From: Candidatus Uhrbacteria bacterium
Lineage (GTDB): Bacteria; Patescibacteriota; Patescibacteriia; UBA9934; GWF2-40-263
DNA: 42,527 nucleotides
Direction of reading: 5' to 3'
NCBI GenBank assembly: GCA_003523645.1
Contig: DOFP01000007.1
Location: forward strand, 1 to 42,527
The notes below the pieces were generated by a model. The model made no database searches and was not told where the DNA came from. It was given only the letters and a program-made list of their open reading frames with translations. Positions 3,076 through 31,502 of this stretch are shown here, one piece after another. The position numbers and the translations under genes were made by a program. The first letter of the stretch is position 1, and every line of letters begins with the position of its first letter.

Positions 3076-3681
3076 ATGCAACATCCATTTACCGAAACAA
3101 TGCTTGCGACAAAATTTGGACATTTCAATATTCGAGTGTATGCGGACACACAAGGAAAAGAAACCGTTCTTCTTTCAACAGAAAAATTAGATCCGTCCAT
3201 TCCTGTGTGTGTTCGTATTCATAGTGAGTGCATGACTGGAGATACGTTTGGAAGTTTACACTGTGATTGTGGAGAGCAGTTGGATGCCTCGCTTCAAAAG
3301 ATCAAGGAAGGAGAAAATGGCGTATTGATTTATCTACGACAAGAAGGACGTGGTATTGGTTTATTTGAAAAAATCAAAACGTATCAATTACAGAAAAAAG
3401 GATATGATACCTATGAGGCAAATGTTCTTCTTGGACATGAACCTGACGAGCGAACATACGAGAAAGCAAAAATGGCACTTGAGGATTTGGGTATTACCCG
3501 TATTCGGCTTCTCACAAACAATCCTTCAAAAGTGAATGACATGATGAATCTCGGCATAGAGGTGGTTGAACGTATTCCGCTTGTGATGCCAGCAAATACC
3601 TATAATGAACGTTATTTTATTTCTAAACGGGATAAATTTCATCATTTTTTTCAAGAAACAATTGGAGCAAAAGTTAGATAA
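3076..3681 (+). CDS. ribA: GTP cyclohydrolase II
   Basis: 201 aa. Zinc/active-site motif [23 protein letters not shown] matches RibA (E. coli [24 protein letters not shown]). RBS AAAGGAAAcctgtATG. Confidence 0.95.
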
Positions 3682-7363: not shown

Positions 7364-8167
7364 ATGGACATTATCATCGGTCAAGAAATTGGTGAATATC
7401 GCACTGAATCCCTTGTTGCGCGTGGAACAAATTCAACCATTTATAGAGGCACTCATCTTCTCATGGGAGAGGAAGTTTGTCTCAAGCGGTATGACCTTGA
7501 CATAAAGCCTGCAATTCCGATTGGGGAAGCGGATGTTTTGTCACGGTTGCAACATACGGAGATTCCAAAATTTCGGAATCTTCTTTCGTTAAAAGATGAT
7601 TCTTATGTGGTTGTCACGCATTTCGTTTCCGGTTCCCCATTGGGTCAAGCCGTGCAAAAGCACGGAAATATGGATCCGGAAATCGTGGCATCATTCTTGG
7701 AGAGAATGTTGCATTTGCTCAGATATATGCATGTAGATCAGAGATGTGTGCATGGAGACATCAAGCCAGAGCATATTTTGGCAAGGACTGATCATTCGAT
7801 TACGCTTGTTGGATTCGGCGTTGCGGAATTTTCTTCTGGAAATTGGGAAAAGAATCGAGGGTGGACAGACTTGTTCGCTCCACCAGAACAAGTTGAGGGT
7901 CGTCCGCTTGTTCCACAGATGGATCTTTACGCACTTGGAATGAGTATGGTGTATCTGCTCTGTGGTGGAAACGAGGAACAATTTAAGAATGGAGAAATTC
8001 CGGACGAAGTCCCCGACCCTATGGGACGATTCCTCTCTCGTTTGGTCATGAAGGATCCTGCCAAACGTTTGAACTGGACGCAGATGGATCTTTTCAAGGA
8101 GTGGGTGGAGATCCGTTTCGAGTGTTTCAAGAGGTCGACGACAGAAGGAAAACTACTCTTTCTTTGA
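7364..8167 (+). CDS. Ser/Thr protein-kinase-fold protein (kinase-like; DFG replaced by GFG)
   Basis: RBS GAGAAGGGGAAAAcaATG. Beta3 Lys in VCLKRY, alphaC Glu in EADVLSRL, catalytic loop HGDIKPEHIL (HRD-like with Asp retained), VGFGVAEF in place of DFG, APE-like FAPPEQ. Paralogous to the C-terminus of 25696-27423. Confidence 0.75.
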   Translation: MDIIIGQEIGEYRTESLVARGTNSTIYRGTHLLMGEEVCLKRYDLDIKPAIPIGEADVLSRLQHTEIPKFRNLLSLKDDSYVVVTHFVSGSPLGQAVQKHGNMDPEIVASFLERMLHLLRYMHVDQRCVHGDIKPEHILARTDHSITLVGFGVAEFSSGNWEKNRGWTDLFAPPEQVEGRPLVPQMDLYALGMSMVYLLCGGNEEQFKNGEIPDEVPDPMGRFLSRLVMKDPAKRLNWTQMDLFKEWVEIRFECFKRSTTEGKLLFL

Positions 8168-8296
8168 GTGATCTGACATGAGGATTTCCGGCACGGAGAT
8201 CCTTTTTTCTTGACGTTTTTTCTCTTTTTGCTAGGGTTGGATGTCGTTCTGGTAGAATGATGTGTTTCTTAAAACTGAATAAGGAAGGAGAAAGAA

Positions 8297-9313
8297 GTGT
8301 CGCGAGGAGGAACTGATTATGACCGTGACGTGTCGGATCGGTCCATGCGAACGAGTAGTGGCTTTACCACAGTCGCAGAGGAAGCGATGGCAACACGACA
8401 ATGGTTCGACCCTGCTCTGTTGCCAAAAGGGAGAGTGATCAAGACACTTTGCAAGAGCCCGATCGCTCTTCCATTTGATGTAACCGGATCCTTGGGGGGT
8501 CTCGCCAAGATCACCTATGACAAAATGCCCATGACTGCCGGAGAACTCAAGAAGCGTTCCTATCTTCAGGACTGTCAGATTTGTCCGATCGCGGTCGGAG
8601 ATGTTGTTTCCGACAGAGGACCGCTCCAGATCGGGGAATTCGTCGTTCCGCGGGAACTTGACAGTTATCTTCAACGCCTTTGGCTCGAAGGGGGAGGTGG
8701 TCGTCAAGGATATGAGTCCTATGAATTCGTCGCCTATTTCCTTGCATACCATTGCGATATTCCAGAGGCCGACACACCATTCGTCATTTTTATAGGTGAT
8801 GAACGGTTCCGGGAGGACCTTCATAGAAATGCGCTTCAAGCGTATTTCGGAGGTATTGAGCATGAAGACATGAATGCTTTCAAAGTGTTTGCCGACCTCA
8901 GGAGAAAGTTCAAGAACAATGTATTTCTGATTCACCGATATTACGATGACATGTGTACGGATAAAGAAGTCATTGACCAGTGGTCAGGAGTTCTTGGAGC
9001 CGATCACGTGATCAATCTCGGACACGGAAACGACACAGCTGTTGCAGACGTCATGCTCGGCATCTTTGCCCTGATGGGCGGGACACGAACTCTGGATCAG
9101 TATCTGGAAGATATGCGGGAACGCGGTCAGGATCAGACGCGTCTTGCCTTTGTTCGTAGGGCTCTGTCTGTTCTGAAGCCGCCGTCCTCAATCCAGAAAA
9201 AAGAGGAAGATGCAGATCAGTCGCAGCAGGTATTGGCGGCGGAAGAGAAGCAGAAAAGTCCGTCCCGCAAGAAGGGAAAATCCGTCTTCGATTCCTCGAA
9301 TTGGGACGTCTGA
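8297..9313 (+). CDS. von Willebrand factor A (vWA/MIDAS) domain protein, locus-1 copy
   Basis: GTG start after AAGGAAGGAG. MIDAS-like DVTGSLGG, GGGG loop and YEFVAYFLAYH. Collinear with 27442-28452 (DVSGSMGF, GGGGG, PEYALYWAATH). Confidence 0.75.
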   Translation: MSRGGTDYDRDVSDRSMRTSSGFTTVAEEAMATRQWFDPALLPKGRVIKTLCKSPIALPFDVTGSLGGLAKITYDKMPMTAGELKKRSYLQDCQICPIAVGDVVSDRGPLQIGEFVVPRELDSYLQRLWLEGGGGRQGYESYEFVAYFLAYHCDIPEADTPFVIFIGDERFREDLHRNALQAYFGGIEHEDMNAFKVFADLRRKFKNNVFLIHRYYDDMCTDKEVIDQWSGVLGADHVINLGHGNDTAVADVMLGIFALMGGTRTLDQYLEDMRERGQDQTRLAFVRRALSVLKPPSSIQKKEEDADQSQQVLAAEEKQKSPSRKKGKSVFDSSNWDV

Positions 9314-9416
9314 AGACAATTTAACCTGTGGGATGCTGGTGCTCAAAATTTTGCACTTGTCGTTCCACAGGTTTTTTAGAAAGTTTCGTTTTTAAGAATC
9401 AATCATCGGAGGAAAG

Positions 9417-10811
9417 ATGAATCATATCATTGGTCGCGGGATTGGACTCGGAGATGAGGGAAAGGGAAAGATCATAGCGGCCATCGGACGGAAACTTGGC
9501 ATTCGGACAGGTATACGCGACACTGGAGCCAATCAAGCCGTTCATCACCTTCCAGGACCTAATGGTATTTGGCATGGGTTTGCGCAATTTTGTTCCCATT
9601 CCTTTCAGAATGACGCGTGGACATTCCTCGCGCGGGGTATGGCGGTTGAGCTTGAGGCACTTGTGCGTGAGGCGGAAGTGCTGGTGACCAAAGGAGTCGT
9701 TGATCCTATTCGACGGGTTGTGATCGATGACCAGTGTGCGATTGTGACACCCATGCACAAAATGGTCGGACGTATGGAGGAATTGATTCGTAGGCGTGGT
9801 TCGTGCGGTATGGGCGCAGGAAGAACAATTCGCGATCGGGAGGCAGGAAAAGGAATTCGAGTTTCACATGTTCTGGACGGATCCGTTCGAGATCGGTTGC
9901 GGGAAATGGTGACAGAAACCATAGCCGAGGCGCGACAGTTACTTGAACAACATCCGACCGATGATATGCGTGCTGAATTTTCCTATTTCATTCATCGGTG
10001 TAATCCGGACATGCTGGCCGAAACCTATGAACATATTCTTGCGTATTCTGGCGTACTGGTAGACCATGATCGTCGGTTATTTCTGCAGCGCATCCAGGAG
10101 GAACGGGTATTTTTCGAGGGGGCACATGGAACTTTGTTGGATGTCCGGTTCGGATTCCATCCGTATGTGACTCAGTCCAAGACCACGTGGCAACATATCG
10201 AGGAGCTTGTCAGTCCTCAAATATCCTTGAAAAAACTTGGGATCTCGAGGTCTTATAGTCTTCGATATGGCATGGGACCTCTCATAACAAAAGACCCTAT
10301 CCTTTCGAAACATCTTCAGGATTCACGTAATCCTGAAGATTCTTGGCAGGGGTCAGTACACATTGGATGGCTTGACCTTCCGATGTGGAGATATGGAATT
10401 CTGTTAAACGATCGACTCGATGGTATTGCCCTTACTTGTCTTGACCACCTAACTGGGTATCCAAGCATTCGAGTATGTACGTCCTATTTTTATGATGGAA
10501 AGCAGGACTCGCTCGATACATTCTTTGAATGGACGCGCACCAAACAAGGAACAGCCGAGATCCTCGGTTTCAAGAAGCCAGAACTACCATTCGAGAGCGA
10601 AGAACGCACGCGGATTCTTCATCAATGTAGGCCTGGTAAGTGGATTGAATTTCCGGGGTGGAACAAGGACATCCGACAAGTAAGACGGGTGCAAGATCTA
10701 CCGAAAGCCGCCCGCAACTATGTTGACTTTCTTGAAAGCTGGGCAGGATTTGCTCTGCCCATTCGGATCATTTCGGTTGGTCCGGATGTTGAAAGCTCAA
10801 TTTTTATCTGA
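9417..10811 (+). CDS. Adenylosuccinate synthetase (PurA)-family protein, highly divergent, locus-1 copy
   Basis: RBS GGAGGaaagATG. PurA P-loop GLGDEGKGKI, GANQAVHH (cf. GGHNAGHT), FFEGAHGTLLDVRFGFHPYVTQSKTT (cf. PurA [25 protein letters not shown]), SYSLRYGMGPLITKD (cf. AYSTRVGAGPFPTEL), LTCLDHL (cf. LTKLDVL). Confidence 0.8.
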   Translation: MNHIIGRGIGLGDEGKGKIIAAIGRKLGIRTGIRDTGANQAVHHLPGPNGIWHGFAQFCSHSFQNDAWTFLARGMAVELEALVREAEVLVTKGVVDPIRRVVIDDQCAIVTPMHKMVGRMEELIRRRGSCGMGAGRTIRDREAGKGIRVSHVLDGSVRDRLREMVTETIAEARQLLEQHPTDDMRAEFSYFIHRCNPDMLAETYEHILAYSGVLVDHDRRLFLQRIQEERVFFEGAHGTLLDVRFGFHPYVTQSKTTWQHIEELVSPQISLKKLGISRSYSLRYGMGPLITKDPILSKHLQDSRNPEDSWQGSVHIGWLDLPMWRYGILLNDRLDGIALTCLDHLTGYPSIRVCTSYFYDGKQDSLDTFFEWTRTKQGTAEILGFKKPELPFESEERTRILHQCRPGKWIEFPGWNKDIRQVRRVQDLPKAARNYVDFLESWAGFALPIRIISVGPDVESSIFI

Positions 10812-10877: not shown

Positions 10878-11411
10878 TTAGGGTCCGGCACAGAGCGGGG
10901 GTTCTTGATTCCGGAATTTGGTACGCAATATGAGAAGATTTTTTTTCTCCTGCTCATATGCTTCCAATTCCACGGGATCTGTCGGTAGAACAAAGATGAT
11001 TGTGTTGCAGTGTTGACAATACTGGTACGTTTTTTTCTCTCTCGGATCCGCAAGAAGCGGTCGTGAGAAACTTATGACATTGTAGACGAGCTCCTCGAGT
11101 TCGTTTCTCCAGGATTCTGGGATCATCGTGTTTTGTTGGAAGGAAGCGAACCCGCAGACAGGACACTGTTCAGGGCAGACATCCGGGTTCTGGAACGAAG
11201 TAAGAGCTTGTTCCCGAATTTGTTCCGGTGTTTTTCCACGATGTTCAGCTTCGAAGGATAGGGAGCATTTATTACATCCCAACCGTTCGAGAACTTCATA
11301 AGAATACCCTGTTTGCGTGCATCGGGTATTCCAGATTCCGATGAGCCGTCCTTCTTTACATGAAGGACAAGAATGGTTCATTAGTAAACCTTTCAATTGT
11401 TCCAGACTCAT
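10878..11411 (-). CDS. Cys-rich zinc-ribbon protein (177 aa), function unknown
   Basis: RBS AGGAGGaaacccc-ATG. Multiple CxxC pairs (CPSCKEG, CNKCS, CPEQCPVCG, CQHCN). Confidence 0.6.
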   Translation of the reverse strand: MSLEQLKGLLMNHSCPSCKEGRLIGIWNTRCTQTGYSYEVLERLGCNKCSLSFEAEHRGKTPEQIREQALTSFQNPDVCPEQCPVCGFASFQQNTMIPESWRNELEELVYNVISFSRPLLADPREKKTYQYCQHCNTIIFVLPTDPVELEAYEQEKKNLLILRTKFRNQEPPLCAGP

Positions 11412-12103: not shown

Positions 12104-13390
12104 TTGAGGAAAAGTTTTGTGTCAGTTATGCTACGGAGCATGTCATTTTCTCTCTTCTCTTCTCGTATACGTTTGCCGCGAACAGTGACATTTCTCATTG
12201 TCCTTGTTTGTATTTTAACATCGTTTGTTTTTGGATTGTTTCTTGGACGCCAGCAAGGAGTTCGTCTGGCTGTTCCGTCTGGAGAAGGTCGTGTGTTGGG
12301 TCAAGGGGGGAAAACAATGACGGCATTGGAAAAAGATGTTGACTTCCAATTATTTTGGAATGTTTGGAATTTGGTAAAAGAAACATACTATCAACAACCT
12401 GTTTCTGATAAATCGCTCTTTTATGGAGCGGTCATGGGAATGGTTGCAGGATTACAGGATCCATATTCTGTGTTCTTTGATCCAACAGCTGCAGAAGAAT
12501 TCAATAAAGATTTGACAGGAAGTTTTGAAGGAGTCGGAGCGGAAATCGGTATCAAAAATCATCAGCTGCAAATCGTGGCTCCATTGCCAGGAAGTCCAGC
12601 TGAAGCAGCTGGGATAAAATCAGGTGATAAGATTTTTTTGATTGACGGAAAAGAGACAGCCAACATGACCGTAGAAGAAGCCATATCTTTGATTCGCGGA
12701 GAACGAGGGACAACGGTCGTTTTGACAATTTCTCGAGACGGATTAAAAGATGTCATGGAAGTTTCGGTTGTTCGCGATACGATAAAAGTGAATAGTGTAC
12801 GTGCGGAAATGCGTGAAGACGGCATCGCAGTTATTCACATGTATTTATTTAATGAAGACACGGAACCGTTGTTTACCGCGGCTGTGAATGAAAGTCTGAG
12901 TCATGGAGCACGAGGAATCATTCTTGACTTACGGAGCAACCCAGGTGGACTTTTAACAGCTGCGATTGATGTGGCAAGTGCATGGATTGGTAAAGATCCG
13001 GTTGTCATTCAACGCGTTCGTGATCGACAAGATGTGTTTCCCGGATCTGTCTCTGCTCGTTTGCAGGGAATTCCAACCGTGGTGCTTGTAAACGGCGGTT
13101 CCGCTTCCGGTTCGGAAATTGTTGCCGGAGCTTTGCAAGATTATGGTTATGCAACACTTATCGGAGAACAAACATTTGGAAAAGGATCTGTCCAGGATTA
13201 TCGCGAGTTAGATGACGGGTCTGCAGTAAAAATTACCATTGCCGAATGGTTGACTCCATATGGACGTTCGATTAATCATGTGGGAATTGCTCCGGATGTG
13301 CAGGTTCCGTTTACGGAAGAGGATTTTAAAAATGGACGTGATCCACAATTTGATACAGCCATTGAATGGCTTCAAAAGGCTATCAAATAA
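12104..13390 (+). CDS. ctpA: Carboxyl-terminal processing protease (S41 family, PDZ domain), membrane-anchored
   Basis: N-terminal TM. PDZ segment GSPAEAAGIKSGDKIFLIDG. S41 motifs GIILDLRSNPGGLL and LVNGGSASGSEIVAGALQD...GEQTFGKGSVQ. Confidence 0.9.
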   Translation: MRKSFVSVMLRSMSFSLFSSRIRLPRTVTFLIVLVCILTSFVFGLFLGRQQGVRLAVPSGEGRVLGQGGKTMTALEKDVDFQLFWNVWNLVKETYYQQPVSDKSLFYGAVMGMVAGLQDPYSVFFDPTAAEEFNKDLTGSFEGVGAEIGIKNHQLQIVAPLPGSPAEAAGIKSGDKIFLIDGKETANMTVEEAISLIRGERGTTVVLTISRDGLKDVMEVSVVRDTIKVNSVRAEMREDGIAVIHMYLFNEDTEPLFTAAVNESLSHGARGIILDLRSNPGGLLTAAIDVASAWIGKDPVVIQRVRDRQDVFPGSVSARLQGIPTVVLVNGGSASGSEIVAGALQDYGYATLIGEQTFGKGSVQDYRELDDGSAVKITIAEWLTPYGRSINHVGIAPDVQVPFTEEDFKNGRDPQFDTAIEWLQKAIK

Positions 13391-13473
13391 TGTCTTGTAT
13401 GAATCATGTGCCTTCTCCGGAATCTATTCCACGGTCTCGACCGTCACGTTCAAGTTCAAAACGTGCAAAAAAT

Positions 13474-13920
13474 ATGGTTCATGAAGTATCAGCGGGCGGG
13501 CTTGTATTCAAACGAACTCCAAAAGGAATTTTGTTTGCCATGATGAAAGATTCGTATGGAAAATGGACGTTCCCAAAAGGACATGTAGAATCTGGAGAAG
13601 AAAAAGAAGAGGCTGCTGCCCGGGAAAGCATGGAAGAACTGGGTCTAGAACAAATTCGACTTCTCGAATCATTAGGACAAATTACGATTTGGTTTCGTGA
13701 TCGTTTTGTAAAAAAAGGAGCGCTGGTTCACAAAGACATTCATTATTTTTTATTTGCGACTCTTCCGGACACAGAATTGTTTCCTCAAACATCTGAACAT
13801 ATCCAGGAAGCTGCATGGATTCCAGCAAAGGAATTATTGGAACGATCTTTTTATCCGGATCTTGTTCCTGTGATCAAACGTGCGCTCATGTACGTGCGTA
13901 TTCACGGAGGAACCGTTTAA
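13474..13920 (+). CDS. Nudix hydrolase
   Basis: Nudix box GHVESGEEKEEAAARESMEELGLE. Start uncertain (in-frame alternatives at 13366 and 13393 overlap the ctpA end). Confidence 0.8.
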   Translation: MVHEVSAGGLVFKRTPKGILFAMMKDSYGKWTFPKGHVESGEEKEEAAARESMEELGLEQIRLLESLGQITIWFRDRFVKKGALVHKDIHYFLFATLPDTELFPQTSEHIQEAAWIPAKELLERSFYPDLVPVIKRALMYVRIHGGTV

Positions 13921-25455: not shown

Positions 25456-25483
25456 TTGACAGGTAGGTTGTTTTTGTTATACT
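25456..25483 (+). promoter_or_regulatory. Putative sigma70-type promoter about 210 nt upstream of the locus-2 operon
   Basis: TTGACA, 16-nt spacer, TATACT. A second TATAAT lies at 25492. Confidence 0.45.
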
Positions 25484-25695
25484 TTATGTCTATAATACAT
25501 TTACTATTTTTTATTTCAAGAAACTTGATGTCATTTTGACTAAAAATGGCTTGACTGACAACAAATTTCATGATAGGTTCTTCGGTCTTTCTTTTCGCCC
25601 CAAAATTCGTCAATAATTGTTGGCAGTTTTAGGGAGGGAATAAATCTCTCACCAAATGGTGATCTTTCACAATTAAAACAAAAAAAGGAGAAATC

Positions 25696-27423
25696 ATGAC
25701 TCTTGATCCTAAGATGTATCTGTCAATTTCTGTGCCTGAAAATTTGAGGAATGGACTCATTGCTATGATGGTTCGTCATTTCCTCTTGAAACAGGTCATC
25801 GGAAACGAATACGTAGCATCTCAAGCCGCACGTGAAATTATGACCGCTTTGTACGGTTTTCATTCAACGTTCGCTCAGATTCAAAGCACGTCAAAAGAAG
25901 ATTTTGAAAAAGCAACTCAAAAAGCCGGTATTTCTGGTATCCCTGTGGCTGGTTTCAAAGAACTCCCGGACGTGTGGCATCTGGTGAATCCTGAAACTCC
26001 GATGTGTTCCCATTGTGGGGATGTACCGCTTTCGAATAATGGATCCTTCATTCAGAATCTGGTTGTTGGGTCTAAGTGTCCCTTCTGTCATGTGGGAGAG
26101 TTTGTTCTCATTCCTATGACTTTGAAAAAGATTACTTGGACTGACGGCAGACTTGTGGATCCGTCTATGAGAGAAGATTATCAGTTCATCACAGGAGAAC
26201 AAATTCCTCTGGATGATGACTTGATTATGGATTGGGTCAATGTTCGTATTCAGCCAGATCTTAAACAAGCATTGGTAGAAGCACAGGTTTCCATATATGG
26301 ATTTCTTGCTTATGCCAACTTGGTTCGCAACGCGTTCAGCGGTCGCAAGGAATCCGAGGAAGGATTGTGCAAGGCTGTTGGTTGGTTGCTTGAGGATCCG
26401 GAAGTATGCAACCTGCCGGTTTCTATTATGGCTGAAGAGGCTATGAAAGCCCGGCAGTATGTGGAAGAAAGAGAAGTGACGAACATGCCACGGATTTTGA
26501 AGTCCACGAGCGTTATCCTTCCTGTATCTTCTGTTGTGGCAACTGTTGTGAATCCGTTTGCTCCGATGAATGAACGAGATCCAACATCCTATATACGGAC
26601 TCGTCTACTCGCATCTGGAGATATGGCTGATATTTATCTTGGCCATCTCAACGATCCATTCGCGGACAAACAGGAGACAGTGATCATCAAGGTGTACCGA
26701 GATGCAGAAGACACTGGGATGGCTCGTAACGAGGCACAAACTTTGGAGCGTTTATACGGAAGTGCTGAGACTGAGAAAGCTGAAGGTTTCCTTCATGGAT
26801 TTCCCAAGGTTCTTGCATACGGACCAGTAACGGATTCTGACGGAGTTGTGCACGAATGTAATGTGTTTTCGTACACTCCTGGCTACATGACTTTGGAAGA
26901 AGTTTGTCGTGACGATCATCGGGTCGATATTCGAACAGGTGTGTGGATGTTCAACCGTATTCTCGAAATGCTTGGTTGGATTCACCAGCACGGCATTATT
27001 CTTGGATCGGTTCTTCCATCCCATATCCTTGCCCAGCTTGATGAACACTGGATCGTTTTTCTTGGATGGCCCTATGCAGTTCATGAGCCAGAGAAAACCG
27101 GTGCACGCATTCTCGCGGTCAGTCAGGCGTACGAGTCTTTTTATCCGGAAAGTGTGTTTCGAAAGAAACCGCCGTCTCCGGCAATGGATATCTCGATGGC
27201 TGCGCGGTGTGTGATCCAGGTTGTAGGTGGAGATCCGATCACGGGGAAATTGCCTCGTGGAGAAGATCCGCTATTTGAGACGATTTTGAAGACAGCTGCC
27301 GGTCTTCATGGTTCTGTTCCGTTCAAGAACGCTTGGCAGTTGCATGAGGCGTTCGGAGAAGTTGCGCGTTCCGTTTTAGGGCCGCGTAAGTTTCATCCAT
27401 CCCGGGTGTTCAAAAAAACCTGA
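25696..27423 (+). CDS. Zinc-ribbon plus pseudokinase-domain protein (575 aa), locus-2 copy of the kinase-fold component
   Basis: RBS AAAGGAGaaatcATG. N-terminal region has CSHCG...CPFCH. C-terminal protein-kinase fold: VIIKVY (beta3 K), EAQTLERL (alphaC E), HQHGIILGSVLPSHIL (HRD Asp lost), FLGWPYA (DFG lost). Collinear with 7364-8167. Confidence 0.75.
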   Translation: MTLDPKMYLSISVPENLRNGLIAMMVRHFLLKQVIGNEYVASQAAREIMTALYGFHSTFAQIQSTSKEDFEKATQKAGISGIPVAGFKELPDVWHLVNPETPMCSHCGDVPLSNNGSFIQNLVVGSKCPFCHVGEFVLIPMTLKKITWTDGRLVDPSMREDYQFITGEQIPLDDDLIMDWVNVRIQPDLKQALVEAQVSIYGFLAYANLVRNAFSGRKESEEGLCKAVGWLLEDPEVCNLPVSIMAEEAMKARQYVEEREVTNMPRILKSTSVILPVSSVVATVVNPFAPMNERDPTSYIRTRLLASGDMADIYLGHLNDPFADKQETVIIKVYRDAEDTGMARNEAQTLERLYGSAETEKAEGFLHGFPKVLAYGPVTDSDGVVHECNVFSYTPGYMTLEEVCRDDHRVDIRTGVWMFNRILEMLGWIHQHGIILGSVLPSHILAQLDEHWIVFLGWPYAVHEPEKTGARILAVSQAYESFYPESVFRKKPPSPAMDISMAARCVIQVVGGDPITGKLPRGEDPLFETILKTAAGLHGSVPFKNAWQLHEAFGEVARSVLGPRKFHPSRVFKKT

Positions 27424-27441
27424 AAAAAAGGAGAGATTGAA

Positions 27442-28452
27442 ATGGCAAAAGGATGGAATACATCGACCCATCAAGAGGTTGAGAAGAAGATGCAGCAGGT
27501 CAAGGAAACAGGCGGAAGTGTGCCAAATGATGGGACAAATCCATACCTGGTTCATCCGCTTATGGATCCTTTGAAGATCAAGAGTGGCATAAGGGAAAGC
27601 TGTGATAGTGCGGAGCAGCTTTTATCGCTTGCCATTATTTTTCTCATGGATGTGAGTGGTTCCATGGGGTTTGTTCCTGAACAACTCAGAACTCGCTATC
27701 TTTGTGAGCTCATGAAGTTTTTGCTTGGCGGGAAACTGGTTGTGGATCCACAGATCATGTTCGCCGCATTTGCGGACGTTGCAGATCGGTGCTTCTTGCA
27801 GGTTGGACAGTTCGAACTCGGAACTGAAATGCACGGGGATCTTTCTCGTTTGCGTATTGGTGGTGGCGGAGGAAGTGCAATGGCGCACGAAGCGCCGGAA
27901 TATGCTCTCTATTGGGCAGCGACCCATACCAAGATTGATTGCTTCGAAAAGCGAAGAAAAAAAGGAATTCTCGTCATAACGACCGATGAAATGCCGAATG
28001 ATAAACTCAAGAAAGAGTATGTCAGGCGTTTTATTGGAGATGGATTAGAAAACGACTTCACGATCGAACAGGTCATTGCACTTGTCCGACAGAAGTACGA
28101 CATTTTCTGTCTGTACACCCATACAGGTTCGTATGGCAGCATGGACAAAGAGATCCGAGCCAGGTGGGTGGAGATCCTCGGATCCGAATATGTTTTCGAC
28201 TTTTACCAGTCTGAAGATATTTGTGCTCTGGTCGGATCCATTATTGGATTGCGAGAGGAAATGGTGAATAATCTAGATGATCTCCGTAATCGTCTCCGTG
28301 GTCTTGAGACTTCGGAGGAAACCATTACTCGGGTGTTGCGGACGGTTTATGGATACGCGACTCTTCTTGGAAGAGGTCAGGTCAATGGGGTGACCCAGAA
28401 GGCTGACGCTCCCGTTGAGAAATCGAAAACAACCGGCAATCGTCGGTTGTGA
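27442..28452 (+). CDS. vWA/MIDAS domain protein, locus-2 copy
   Basis: RBS AAAGGAGAGattgaaATG. Canonical MIDAS IIFLMDVSGSMGF, GGGGGS loop, ILVITTDEMPND. Confidence 0.85.
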   Translation: MAKGWNTSTHQEVEKKMQQVKETGGSVPNDGTNPYLVHPLMDPLKIKSGIRESCDSAEQLLSLAIIFLMDVSGSMGFVPEQLRTRYLCELMKFLLGGKLVVDPQIMFAAFADVADRCFLQVGQFELGTEMHGDLSRLRIGGGGGSAMAHEAPEYALYWAATHTKIDCFEKRRKKGILVITTDEMPNDKLKKEYVRRFIGDGLENDFTIEQVIALVRQKYDIFCLYTHTGSYGSMDKEIRARWVEILGSEYVFDFYQSEDICALVGSIIGLREEMVNNLDDLRNRLRGLETSEETITRVLRTVYGYATLLGRGQVNGVTQKADAPVEKSKTTGNRRL

Positions 28453-28525
28453 TTCGCAGGTAAAAACATGAGGAGGCCTGCATACTCGCAGGTCTCCTTT
28501 TTACATCTTTTATATTGGAGGAATC

Positions 28526-29959
28526 ATGAACGATTTAGAGTTTGGTCGAACATCCTACCTGATTCGCGATTTGATATTTGGAGATAGTGGAAAGGGAACT
28601 ATCGGAGAGTTTCTCACATGGTGGCTTGATCAATTCGCGCCAATTTGGTCAAAGGTTCATACAGTCATTCGGACCGAGGGTGGTCATCAGGCCATACACA
28701 ACAATATCCTTCCCGATGGACGACATCATGGATTTTCCCAGTTTGGGTCGGGAAGTCTCACGTCTCCGATTTGGACACACCATGCAAAGGGAATGATGGT
28801 CGAGCCACTGCACGCACTTGACGAGGGAAAGGATTTGCAGCATTTGGGCGTGCGGGATATCTTCGGCCGTTTGACTGTGAGTCGCGATGTCCGAATAGTG
28901 ACGCCGTTTCAACAGGCAGCCAACCGTCTTCGCGAATATGCTCGAGGAGTCGGACGGCACGGAAGTTGCGGAAAAGGGATTGGTGAAACTGCATCTGATG
29001 CACTTGCGATCGGAACCGATGCTCTTTATGCAAGAGATCTGATGGATTCTGCAATCCTTCGGGAAAAGTTGTCTCAGATTCAGGCATACAAGCTGGCTCA
29101 GCTCGCAGATCTGATATATCGATTTGGAGATGACAAAGCAATCTCGGCAGAGATCGACTGGCTCACAAATACGGCAGCTTCATCGATTCTCGTCGCGTAT
29201 CTTGGCGAGTTCGTCGAACGCGTGAAGATCGTGGAGAATGCACACATTGGTGGAATTCTTTCCAGGCCGGGTTCGGTGATTTTTGAGGGAGCGCAAGGAG
29301 TTCTCATTGATGAGTGGCGCGGGTTTCACCCGTACACGACATGGAGTACCTGTACGTTTGACAACGCGCTCGAACTTCTCCGCGAACACCAGTATGACGG
29401 CAGGATTGTCCGGATCGGAGTTGTCCGCGCGTATGCAACACGACACGGTGCCGGACCATTTATGACAGAAGATCCATTTCTTACCAATGCACTTCCGGAC
29501 ACATATAACGTGACGGATGTTTGGCAACAGACGTTCCGTGTCGGCTGGTTCGATGCTGTGGCTGCTCGATACGCAATTGCAGCATGTGGTCAGGTAGATG
29601 CATTGGCTGTCACTTGTCTTGATCGAATGCGTGATTTATCTCAGTGGCTCATCTGCACCGGATATGAATTATCTGAAGATGATTCGAATGCGGCAAAGTT
29701 TTTTGAACTGGATCCGCAAAATCCGAGGATTGCGCGTAATATTCGGCTTGGACCTCACAAAGATCTCGTTTATCAAGAGACCTTGACTGAGCAGTTGAAG
29801 CGTGTGAAGCCGATATATGAAGTCTCTGCCAATGCAGCAGACTTTGGCCAGCGTGCAGAGCAGCATCTTGCACGAATCGAATCTGAACTCGGCGTGCCGG
29901 TCGCTATCACATCCTACGGTCCAACCGTTCTGGACAAGCGAATGGTACGCCCCGTTTAA
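28526..29959 (+). CDS. Adenylosuccinate synthetase (PurA)-family protein, highly divergent, locus-2 copy
   Basis: RBS GGAGGaatcATG. Eroded P-loop FGDSGKGTIG, GGHQAIHN, GSCGKGIGET, IFEGAQGVLIDEWRGFHPYTTWSTCT, RAYATRHGAGPFMTED, VTCLDRM. Matches PurA motifs in order. Confidence 0.8.
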   Translation: MNDLEFGRTSYLIRDLIFGDSGKGTIGEFLTWWLDQFAPIWSKVHTVIRTEGGHQAIHNNILPDGRHHGFSQFGSGSLTSPIWTHHAKGMMVEPLHALDEGKDLQHLGVRDIFGRLTVSRDVRIVTPFQQAANRLREYARGVGRHGSCGKGIGETASDALAIGTDALYARDLMDSAILREKLSQIQAYKLAQLADLIYRFGDDKAISAEIDWLTNTAASSILVAYLGEFVERVKIVENAHIGGILSRPGSVIFEGAQGVLIDEWRGFHPYTTWSTCTFDNALELLREHQYDGRIVRIGVVRAYATRHGAGPFMTEDPFLTNALPDTYNVTDVWQQTFRVGWFDAVAARYAIAACGQVDALAVTCLDRMRDLSQWLICTGYELSEDDSNAAKFFELDPQNPRIARNIRLGPHKDLVYQETLTEQLKRVKPIYEVSANAADFGQRAEQHLARIESELGVPVAITSYGPTVLDKRMVRPV

Positions 29960-30012
29960 TAAGGGTTCGAATAAAATCTTGAGGAATCGTTAAAAACGGT
30001 TCCTTTTTGTAT

Positions 30013-30808: not shown

Positions 30809-30905
30809 TGATACCTCCTTTTATGGTTGAAGTTTCTAGAATGATCCTAACTTGTTTAAAAAGGATGTCAACAATTTTTGCTTGTCGGATGCGTTTGTTT
30901 TGCTT

Positions 30906-31502
30906 ATGATGGGGTATGTTCACATTTTTATGAAACTTCCTTTGATTTTTCGAAACATGCAAAAACAGTTTGTGAATGCTCAACAAGGGCGTTCAGCTGT
31001 GATACATGCATCAAATGATGCACTTAATCGTTCAAAACGTGCGATTTTTGCATTACATCGCGGAAACGCACAAACAGCGACAACACTGTTAGAAGAGGCT
31101 AAAATCTGTTTTCAAGATGCAGAACGACGATTTCGCACTAGTCCGGAATTAAAACATGAAGGTTCTTATCAGGCAGCACGTGAAGAGTATACGGAAGCAA
31201 TGATATTTGCGGATTATCTTCGTGGTGGACGCTTTTCCATATCAGAGCCACGGATTGCAGATCCGCAGGTGTTTCTTGCAGGTCTTTCTGATGCCACAGG
31301 TGAGATTGTTCGGTATGCTATTCGTCAAGCAACGCATGGAAATCGAGAAGAAGTCACACGTGCTCACGAGACCATTGAAATGATTATCCATTTTCTTTTG
31401 GAACTTGATTTGACCGGATACCTTCGTCAGAAGTTTGATCAAGGAAAAAAGAATTTGCGTACCATAGAAGATATCCTTTACGACTTAAGTCTCAAATCCT
31501 AA
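30906..31502 (+). CDS. Translin-family protein (putative)
   Basis: All-helical ~198-aa protein. C-terminus LRQKFDQGKKNLRTIEDILYDLSLKS matches the translin signature (human LRKRYDGLKYDVKKVEEVVYDLSI). Start uncertain (ORF track begins at a TTG at 30852). Confidence 0.55.
   Translation: MMGYVHIFMKLPLIFRNMQKQFVNAQQGRSAVIHASNDALNRSKRAIFALHRGNAQTATTLLEEAKICFQDAERRFRTSPELKHEGSYQAAREEYTEAMIFADYLRGGRFSISEPRIADPQVFLAGLSDATGEIVRYAIRQATHGNREEVTRAHETIEMIIHFLLELDLTGYLRQKFDQGKKNLRTIEDILYDLSLKS

Follow-up and report, generated by a model that had tools for sequence, protein, structure and literature searches.

A vWA protein, a degenerate kinase and a divergent PurA-like enzyme form a gene module widespread in bacteria and phages

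RESULTS

A three-gene operon in a Candidatus Uhrbacteria contig

We analysed a stretch of 42,527 nucleotides (the window), contig DOFP01000007.1 of assembly GCA_003523645.1, from a Candidatus Uhrbacteria bacterium, a member of the Candidate Phyla Radiation (CPR). At positions 25696-29959 it carries three open reading frames (ORFs), all on the + strand, called here triad A. Gene 1 (25696-27423, +, 575 aa) encodes the long form of a kinase-fold protein, gene 2 (27442-28452, +, 336 aa) a vWA-fold protein with an intact metal ion-dependent adhesion site (MIDAS) and a disordered C-terminal tail, and gene 3 (28526-29959, +, 477 aa) a predicted GTP-dependent enzyme of the PurA fold. The genes are separated by 18 nt (genes 1/2) and 73 nt (genes 2/3), and a GGAG/GGAGG ribosome-binding site (RBS) precedes every start codon. 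An earlier interpretation made from the DNA letters (the sequence-only reading) had described here an operon of a zinc-ribbon pseudokinase, a MIDAS vWA protein and a divergent PurA-family enzyme. Its ORF coordinates match ours exactly; the gaps, RBSs, promoter-like site and terminator were confirmed, and motifs, profiles and the structural models of gene 2 and gene 3 agree with its assignments. The trio recurs in many bacteria and phages, with a PurA-like enzyme whose aspartate loop has been replaced.

Gene 3 belongs to a PurA-like clade with a remodelled aspartate site

Gene 3 matches the Pfam family PF00709 (Adenylsucc_synt) with an E-value of 1.1e-56, and public annotations name its homologues 'adenylosuccinate synthetase'. 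It nevertheless scores far below the purA equivalog cutoffs (151.2 versus 402 bits for NF002223, 131.5 versus 395.55 for TIGR00184), as does the PurA-like protein of a second cassette in the window, copy B (178 bits versus 395-402). With the NCBIfam PurZ model NF038379, whose cutoff is 300 bits, gene 3 reached 25.6 and copy B 33.5 bits. An AlphaFold (AF2) model built from a 43-sequence alignment displays the full PurA fold with a predicted local distance difference test score (pLDDT) of 93.4. Foldseek aligned this model with Escherichia coli PurA (1cg1) at 1.4e-34, with a template-modelling (TM) score, TMt, of 0.82 and 24% identity. The fit to PurZ/PurZ0 was much poorer (TMq 0.53-0.58, 15-17% identity). 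In the PHROG collection, gene 3 is included in phrog_1211, annotated as '2-aminooxy adenylosuccinate synthetase'.

Functional positions of E. coli PurA were mapped onto 85 bacterial and 74 viral PurA-like copies (159 in all). The reference sequence passed residue-identity checks and agrees with the 1cg3 alignment. Residues G12, D13, K16, H41, Q224, T239 and D333 are essentially invariant, the catalytic Asp13 being present in 157 of 159 copies and the remaining two being alignment gaps. The guanine-specifying Asp333 and Ser414 are also kept. In gene 3 itself the P-loop is intact (G12, D13, G15, K16, G17), so that the 'P-loop remnant' of the sequence-only reading was too pessimistic.

The L-aspartate loop, in contrast, is replaced. 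The TTGRRR of E. coli PurA becomes W-Q-x-x-F-R, with T300 changed to W/F/Y, T301 to Q, R303 to G and R305 to F/L/M; these four residues, and R143 with them, are missing from essentially all 159 copies. V273, in the ribose/Asp pocket, is changed to an invariant His. The contacts to the 5′-phosphate of inosine monophosphate (IMP) are altered to varying degrees: T239 is kept, N38 undergoes a conservative change to Q, and T129 is replaced by C in 82/85 bacterial and 50/74 viral copies (V in 21 viral ones). R143, which contacts the 5′-phosphate from the other subunit, becomes H, Y, N or G. Judged by its residues, the clade thus shows retention of the GTP and phosphotransfer machinery and loss of the aspartate site. 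The suspicion that gene 3 homologues are not ordinary PurA orthologues is borne out both by the equivalog scores and by this loss across the clade.

Among viral PF00709 homologues, a 2026 study (PMC12884076) limited its characterisation to PurZ/PurZ0, a clade defined by Asp to Ser at the catalytic position, and took the other ~330 as an outgroup. Because it keeps the catalytic Asp, the PurA-like clade belongs to this uncharacterised remainder of the family.

Gene 2 encodes a MIDAS vWA protein

Gene 2 has no significant Pfam match, and no Pfam VWA model is significant. It contains the MIDAS sequence DVSGS, however; the MIDAS (D70-x-S/T-G73-S74, with D182-E183 further on) is invariant in a 37-sequence family alignment, and its AF2 model is well defined (pLDDT 88.4, predicted TM score, pTM, 0.87). 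Top Foldseek matches, all at probability 1.00, are the vWA domain of the SpaC adhesin, the VWA domain of NorD and integrin I-domains. The protein matches phrog_2971 ('unknown function') at 2.9e-35.

Both ends of the protein carry conserved features. The last ~12 residues of gene 2 are disordered and terminate in RRL; 50/96 bacterial and 20/80 viral vWA-like copies, as well as the mycobacteriophage protein gp257, end in the motif x-R-L-COOH, and Burkholderiales-type copies have a WW[KR]RLF[GAS] variant. The N-terminus shows a conserved small residue (MG/MA/MS), for which the two window copies have A and S.

Gene 1 encodes a degenerate kinase-fold protein

In gene 1, an N-terminal region (residues 1-~290) is followed by a degenerate protein-kinase domain that makes up the C-terminal part (~297-570). 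The kinase domain has the beta3 Lys (VIIKV) and the alphaC Glu (NEAQTLE), and has neither the HRD Asp (HQHGIILGSVLPSHIL) nor the DFG Asp (FLGWPY). Because both aspartates are gone, the label of pseudokinase, or at least of non-canonical kinase, is justified. This domain is homologous to the product of the gene preceding the vWA gene at the other loci examined. Gene 1 itself has no Pfam match; it matches phrog_3043 ('kinase') at 4.4e-21 and the PADLOC PD-T4-6 kinase model at 2.9e-4.

A word-index homologue search with gene 1 returned only gene 1 itself, and relatives were gathered by neighbourhood BLAST and exhaustive HMMER, the latter giving 1,123 kinase-like cluster representatives at E<=1e-10. 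Compared with the PDB, the family profile matches CK2alpha and other protein kinases at 1e-13, the alignment placing HRDVKPHN over HGAVLPEH and DWG over (D/G)W. The beta3 Lys and the alphaC Glu are each present in 74/78 bacterial kinase-like copies. An Asp at the HRD position is found in only 5 of 142 copies (0/62 viral), the catalytic-loop Asn position is a His in most of the 142, and the DFG-position Asp is present in about half. Four near-invariant histidines lie within this remodelled catalytic loop and may form a new site.

Of 30 kinase-like members scanned, 7-12 give sub-threshold Pkinase, Kdo and APH matches. Additional domains are sporadic in this set: five members match a DnaJ domain model and two Zn_ribbon_3, and there are single weak matches to TCAD9 and VMAP-M0, both predicted conflict-system domains. 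The N-terminal ~290 residues of gene 1 are common to ~30 long-form relatives. Its zinc ribbon Cys4 (C104/C107/C128/C131) is conserved in 26 of these long-form proteins; besides the zinc ribbon, a Pfam scan of 10 long-form relatives gave no domain in this region.

The trio is co-conserved across bacterial phyla

Relatives of the vWA-like protein were found in at least 583 species genomes (one genome scanned per species). Linkage was counted with home-built hidden Markov models in the 80 best-scoring loci, which are not a random sample, using as denominators the loci with room for the gene in question. In 71/74 loci the vWA-like gene is followed directly by the PurA-like gene, both on one strand; a kinase-like gene lies upstream of it in 67/75, and the trio is complete in 62/70. 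The trio was found around PurA-like homologues in Chloroflexota, Saccharibacteria, Binatia and a further genome of 3 Mb, and around vWA-like homologues in Massilia, Planobispora and Polyangiaceae. Hosts of the module include Actinomycetota, Myxococcota, Planctomycetota, Chloroflexota, Burkholderiales, Verrucomicrobiota, Fibrobacterota and CPR bacteria. The trio is a genuine unit and not a chance adjacency, conserved far outside the genome in which the sequence-only reading had noticed it. It is not specific to Patescibacteria; this, its distribution in phages and a frequent fourth gene, which the window does not contain, are additions to that reading.

The fourth gene encodes an NrtR-type protein, with a Nudix domain and a winged helix-turn-helix (wHTH), and accompanies the vWA-like gene in 42/72 loci; it is Pfam-annotated at loci L001, L004, L007 and L008. 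The Nudix box is degenerate in three of the four sequences inspected, which is typical of ligand-sensing rather than hydrolytic Nudix members.

Variations on the basic arrangement were also observed. Some Chloroflexota and Polyangia loci have two vWA-like genes in tandem (L002, L009, L015, L024, L025, L060, L076). The kinase-like gene is located 3′ of the PurA-like gene, instead of 5′ of the vWA gene, in six loci (L002, L095, L109, L114, L127, L166). In the Polyangiaceae locus L009, a 157-aa ORF (9472-9945) separates the vWA-like and PurA-like genes.

Eight Streptosporangiaceae loci (L008, L031, L061, L063, L064, L073, L088, L089) occupy one conserved chromosomal position, flanked upstream by an acyl-CoA dehydrogenase gene and downstream by genes for DUF6458, Dabb and a 2-oxoacid dehydrogenase complex. 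This indicates vertical inheritance of the module in the family, and the conservation of the position across the eight loci points to a physiological role there. A general linkage to purine biosynthesis was considered and rejected: purS/purQ/purL occur near the module in three Streptosporangiaceae loci only, where purS and purQ lie a few kb further downstream. No defence-island signal was detected either, the 98 flanking bacterial proteins being of ordinary metabolism and PADLOC giving only generic subtilase/kinase matches.

The module is carried by phages

In IMG/VR, vWA-like relatives are present on 279 viral contigs, many of the module-bearing contigs being 100-500 kb long. Among the 80 best-scoring of the 279, the PurA-like gene lies 3′ of the vWA-like gene in almost all loci, and a kinase-like gene scoring >=100 bits accompanies the vWA-like gene in about half. 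All three window proteins fall in dedicated PHROGs (phrog_3043, phrog_2971 and phrog_1211).

Searching cultured phages with tblastn gave vWA-like matches in 219 records and PurA-like matches in 240, with closely paired counts by host: 201/202 for Mycobacterium, 10/10 for Rhizobium and 6/6 for Vibrio (vWA-like/PurA-like). The module is present in about 200 cultured Bxz1-like mycobacteriophages, whose genes are annotated only individually. In Mycobacterium phage MoMoMixon, for example, gp256 is a 'Ser/Thr kinase', gp257 'hypothetical' and gp259 a 'PurA-like adenylosuccinate synthetase'; the intervening gp258 is a small ORF (L170 5888-6154, 88 aa). According to a genome announcement, which makes no functional comment, the serine/threonine kinase and PurA-like phams belong to those conserved in all C1 lytic mycobacteriophages (PMC9476963).

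A Vibrio phage carries the vWA/PurA-like pair only, without a kinase-like gene, which fits vWA plus PurA-like as the invariant core of the module. As to neighbours, the module lies near Pnk in mycobacteriophages and near an anaerobic ribonucleotide reductase (RNR) in the Vibrio phage.

A second, diverged copy in the window

The sequence-only reading had placed a second cassette at 7364-10811, and three paralogous ORFs are indeed found there. Copy B consists of a kinase gene (7364-8167, +; the ORF is extendable to 7298, but the RBS AAGGGG favours the start at 7364), a vWA-like gene with a GTG start and a DVTGS MIDAS (8297-9313, +; phrog_2971 at 4.9e-27) and a PurA-like gene (9417-10811, +; PF00709 at 4.2e-67). 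Between the two copies, the PurA-like proteins share 30% identity (6e-55) and the vWA-like proteins 24% (3e-15), and the kinases give a local match only (1e-4). Copy B is an old paralogue of triad A and not a recent duplicate. Its kinase matches Pkinase at 1.7e-27 and keeps HGD and the catalytic-loop Lys, a His replacing the catalytic-loop Asn and GFG replacing DFG.

Between the copy B kinase and vWA-like genes (~8180-8260, +) we noted a terminator-like hairpin, GGATTTCCGGCACGGAGATCC, plus T6, with a promoter-like pair TTGACG...TAGAAT on its 3′ side. The kinase gene of copy B may therefore have a transcript of its own, apart from that of the vWA/PurA-like pair.

The G+C content of both trios (0.46-0.51) exceeds that of their surroundings (0.39-0.43), which suggests that both were acquired horizontally. 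The possibility that the window is a prophage or viral genome was rejected: its genes include those for ribosomal protein L9 and CTP synthase and the dcw-cluster genes for MraY/FtsW/MurG/MurD/DivIC, and it is ordinary chromosome. The gene 2 protein is 100% identical to a protein of Candidatus Uhrbacteria GW2011_GWF2_41_16.

Transcription signals of triad A

A promoter-like site TTGACA-16-(TG)TATACT (25456-25483, +), with 11/12 consensus matches and an extended -10 TG, lies ~213 nt before the gene 1 ATG. It is followed by a leader of ~210 nt (25484-25695, +) ending in the RBS AAAGGAG. Promoter and terminator calls are consensus matches, and because 10 such promoter-like sites were found where 6.7 +/- 2.5 are expected, this promoter is plausible but not proven. 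A riboswitch in the leader was rejected for want of evidence (best Rfam E-value 0.027, far below gathering; folding z-score only -2.2).

Downstream, a terminator-like hairpin with an 11-pair stem and a T-run closes triad A (29981-30005, +), facing the hairpin that closes the convergent neighbour gene (30039-30020, -). Within the operon, a strong hairpin followed by a U-run occupies the gene 2/gene 3 gap (28470-28504, +); it has a folding energy of -23.9 kcal/mol and a z-score of -5.25, and none of 200 shuffled sequences was as stable. Judged by its predicted folding, it might attenuate or terminate transcription inside the operon, uncoupling expression of the PurA-like gene from that of genes 1 and 2. 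A weak promoter-like site was also observed between genes 2 and 3 (28500-28527).

Other genes of the window

Convergent to copy B is a gene (10878-11411, -) for a 177-aa protein that has several CxxC pairs but no Pfam match, and a stand-alone NUDIX hydrolase (13366-13920, +, 1.8e-20) lies 2.5 kb downstream of copy B; the latter is not an NrtR-type regulator because it has no wHTH domain. A GTP cyclohydrolase II gene (3076-3681, +, 7.4e-59) upstream of copy B and a Translin-family gene (30852-31502, +, 5.6e-18) just downstream of the convergent neighbour of triad A are probably unrelated housekeeping genes. An 872-aa protein (38439-41057, +) matches the Major Vault Protein (MVP) shoulder at 6.6e-26 and the vault repeat at 3.9e-08. 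This gene, unusual in a CPR bacterium, has a G+C content of 0.51-0.52 against a background of ~0.42 and was probably acquired horizontally.

DISCUSSION

A possible GTP-dependent purine nucleotide chemistry

We view the locus as a self-contained and probably horizontally mobile module whose core would be the MIDAS vWA protein and a specialised PurA-fold enzyme, usually joined by the degenerate kinase-fold partner and, in many bacteria, by an NrtR-type Nudix-wHTH regulator. The PurA-like enzyme keeps its catalytic machinery and has discarded the site of one substrate, and new nucleotide chemistry is therefore predicted. It would bind GTP and, as PurA does, phosphorylate a purine nucleotide on its 6-oxo group via D13, K16, H41 and Q224; the activated carbon would then be attacked by an amine other than aspartate, to give an N6-substituted adenine-type nucleotide. 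An aromatic/His pocket (H273, W/F300, F305) would stand in for the aspartate-binding Thr/Arg loop. The altered 5′-phosphate contacts suggest in addition that something other than plain IMP may be the acceptor. Regulation or scaffolding would fall to the vWA protein, by way of its MIDAS and its conserved xRL-COOH tail, and to the His-rich pseudokinase; these subunits would switch or target the enzyme, possibly within a complex. Where present, the NrtR-like protein may sense a nucleotide ligand and control the operon. In infecting phages the module could serve to reprogram the pool of purine nucleotides or to protect it, and bacteria, including the two-copy CPR host, could use the module as a regulated device for nucleotide handling.

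Our preferred reading, a regulated GTP-dependent activation of 6-oxopurines followed by substitution with a non-aspartate amine, with the vWA protein and the pseudokinase as regulatory or targeting subunits, is put forward tentatively. That this activity would be new to the PurA fold, a GTP-driven amination or substitution of a 6-oxopurine nucleotide under vWA/pseudokinase control whose modified product is a new metabolite or signal, sensed by the NrtR-like protein, in phages and bacteria alike, is a doubtful extension.

Several points weigh against the preferred reading. The kinase-like partner is not obligatory because it is missing in some loci, such as that of the Vibrio phage, and no NrtR-type gene was found beside either window copy. 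Linkage was, as said, counted among top-scoring loci and not a random sample. The proposed substrates are read from which residues are lost or kept; the reaction could also end with GTP hydrolysis or phosphotransfer, or the target of the enzyme could be a macromolecule.

Alternative explanations

One alternative, ordinary purine salvage in which gene 3 is the host's adenylosuccinate synthetase and its neighbours are unrelated, would account for the good Pfam Adenylsucc_synt E-values, the public annotations and the full PurA fold. It is largely refuted, since the proteins score so far below the equivalog cutoffs (151 versus 402 and 131 versus 395), the residues T300, T301, R303, R305 and R143 are gone, and in phages, as across bacterial phyla, the link with a vWA-like gene is near-obligate; a canonical purA is in addition to be expected in free-living hosts, for example Massilia and Micromonospora. 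Abortive-infection defence appears unlikely, although less so. Here the pseudokinase and the vWA protein would sense infection, and the PurA-like effector would deplete GTP/IMP or make a toxic or signalling nucleotide, the phage copies serving inter-phage competition. Pairs of vWA proteins and kinases are known from conflict systems, TerY-P among them; the module is patchily distributed among taxa, the G+C content of both window copies is above that of their surroundings, and a small CPR genome holds two diverged copies. Locus L009 moreover adjoins patatin, STAND-kinase and PD-(D/E)XK genes, and two of 30 kinase-like members weakly match TCAD9 and VMAP-M0. Against this, the vWA-like and PurA-like proteins match nothing in PADLOC, the 98 flanking genes are metabolic with generic subtilase/kinase matches as the only defence-model matches, and the chromosomal position is conserved across Streptosporangiaceae. 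The presence of the kinase and PurA-like phams in all C1 lytic mycobacteriophages (PMC9476963) would also be unusual for abortive infection.

By analogy with PurZ, the enzyme might instead supply an N6-modified (d)AMP precursor, or a purine modification in DNA or RNA, that evades host nucleases. Many large lytic phages carry the module beside nucleotide-metabolism genes (Pnk, anaerobic RNR), PurA-family members have been recruited for genome modification in the case of PurZ/PurZ0 (PMC12884076), and phrog_1211 groups gene 3 with '2-aminooxy adenylosuccinate synthetase'. We consider such nucleic-acid hypermodification quite unlikely: Asp13 is kept where phage PurZ/PurZ0 have Ser in 100% of sequences, the Asp site needed for a succino-intermediate is gone, its conserved neighbours include no dedicated polymerase, dNTPase or lyase, and the hundreds of bacterial chromosomes that carry the module under an NrtR-like regulator are hard to reconcile with modification of virion DNA. 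A protein-directed ligase seems more improbable still. The PurA-like enzyme would couple an activated purine or a protein carbonyl to an amine of a protein, for example the vWA partner, giving a conjugate of nucleotide and protein, with the pseudokinase as adaptor. The aromatic/His pocket in place of a small-molecule L-Asp site would suit this idea, as would the small-residue N-terminus of the vWA protein and its conserved C-terminal tail on a disordered linker, and the DnaJ fusions on 5/30 kinase-like members suggest links to protein remodelling. The proposal is however purely inferential, the N-terminal Gly of the vWA protein is not invariant, and we know of no precedent for PurA-fold enzymes acting on proteins.

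Significance of the module

Although the module is present in at least 583 species genomes, hundreds of viral contigs and ~200 mycobacteriophages, we found no paper treating it as a unit. Our literature search, whose coverage was incomplete, gave no description of the three-gene combination but only genome announcements listing the phage genes singly, in line with the sequence-only reading, which had not recognised a described system. Because the homologues are annotated as 'adenylosuccinate synthetase', metabolic reconstructions may wrongly credit their carriers with IMP-to-AMP conversion; this may be a concern especially for CPR bacteria and for phage 'auxiliary metabolic genes'. If the doubtful extension above, with its new metabolite or signal, is true, the module would represent a new and widespread nucleotide-based pathway at the phage-host interface. 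It is genetically tractable in Mycobacterium smegmatis with a Bxz1-like phage, in Massilia and in Micromonospora.

Comparison with known systems

In chemistry, the natural references are PurA (EC 6.3.4.4; PF00709, TIGR00184) and PurZ. With PurA the clade shares the overall fold, the GTP P-loop, Asp13, His41, Gln224, Asp333 and Ser414; it differs by failing the equivalog cutoffs, by the loss of the L-Asp loop and R143, by the changes N38 to Q, T129 to C and V273 to H, and by a gene located beside a vWA gene and not in purine operons. PurZ is a succino-2-amino-deoxyadenylate synthase of short form (~340-370 aa) that has kept aspartate chemistry. Like the PurA-like clade, PurZ/PurZ0 are phage-carried PurA-family members recruited away from housekeeping AMP synthesis. 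Phage PurZ/PurZ0, however, have Ser instead of the catalytic Asp13 (PMC12884076), which the PurA-like clade keeps. The module has vWA and kinase-like partners in place of DatZ/MazZ/DpoZ: the annotations around the gene in MoMoMixon and in the Vibrio phage show none of the PurZ partners DatZ, MazZ/DUF550, DutZ/DmtZ and DpoZ, and none is found in the window.

In architecture, the TerY-P triad, made of the vWA protein TerY, a Ser/Thr kinase and a PP2C phosphatase, is likewise a three-gene module with a MIDAS vWA protein and a protein-kinase-fold protein. The sequence-only reading had pointed to this likeness, but membership does not hold. No PADLOC model was matched by the vWA-like or PurA-like proteins (vWA-like: E<=0.1, both copies), neither the two triads nor their conserved neighbourhood contain a PP2C phosphatase, the kinase partner is without the catalytic Asp in 137/142 copies, and the third gene encodes a PurA-fold enzyme. 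The PrkA/YeaG-YeaH (DUF444)-YcgB/SpoVR stress system also groups, as a conserved trio, a kinase-like and a vWA-like protein with a third one whose chemistry is unclear, and is likewise chromosomal and linked to physiology rather than to defence. Gene 2 gives a DUF444 match at the MIDAS that is sub-threshold (E 0.034, 13.7 bits versus a cutoff of 27); the module has no AAA+ PrkA architecture and its loci no SpoVR-like gene. Finally, the vWA-AAA+ pairs (NorD/NorQ, CbbO/CbbQ, MoxR-vWA, chelatase D/I) also combine a MIDAS vWA adaptor with a P-loop NTPase, and one of the best structural matches of gene 2 is the VWA domain of NorD. The NTPase of the module is, however, a SIMIBI-class PurA-fold ligase and not an AAA+ ring, and no remodelling target is evident. 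The module would be closest to PurA/PurZ in its chemistry, and in its architecture it resembles TerY-P and PrkA-YeaH-YcgB, but it falls short on the tested defining features of each of these four.

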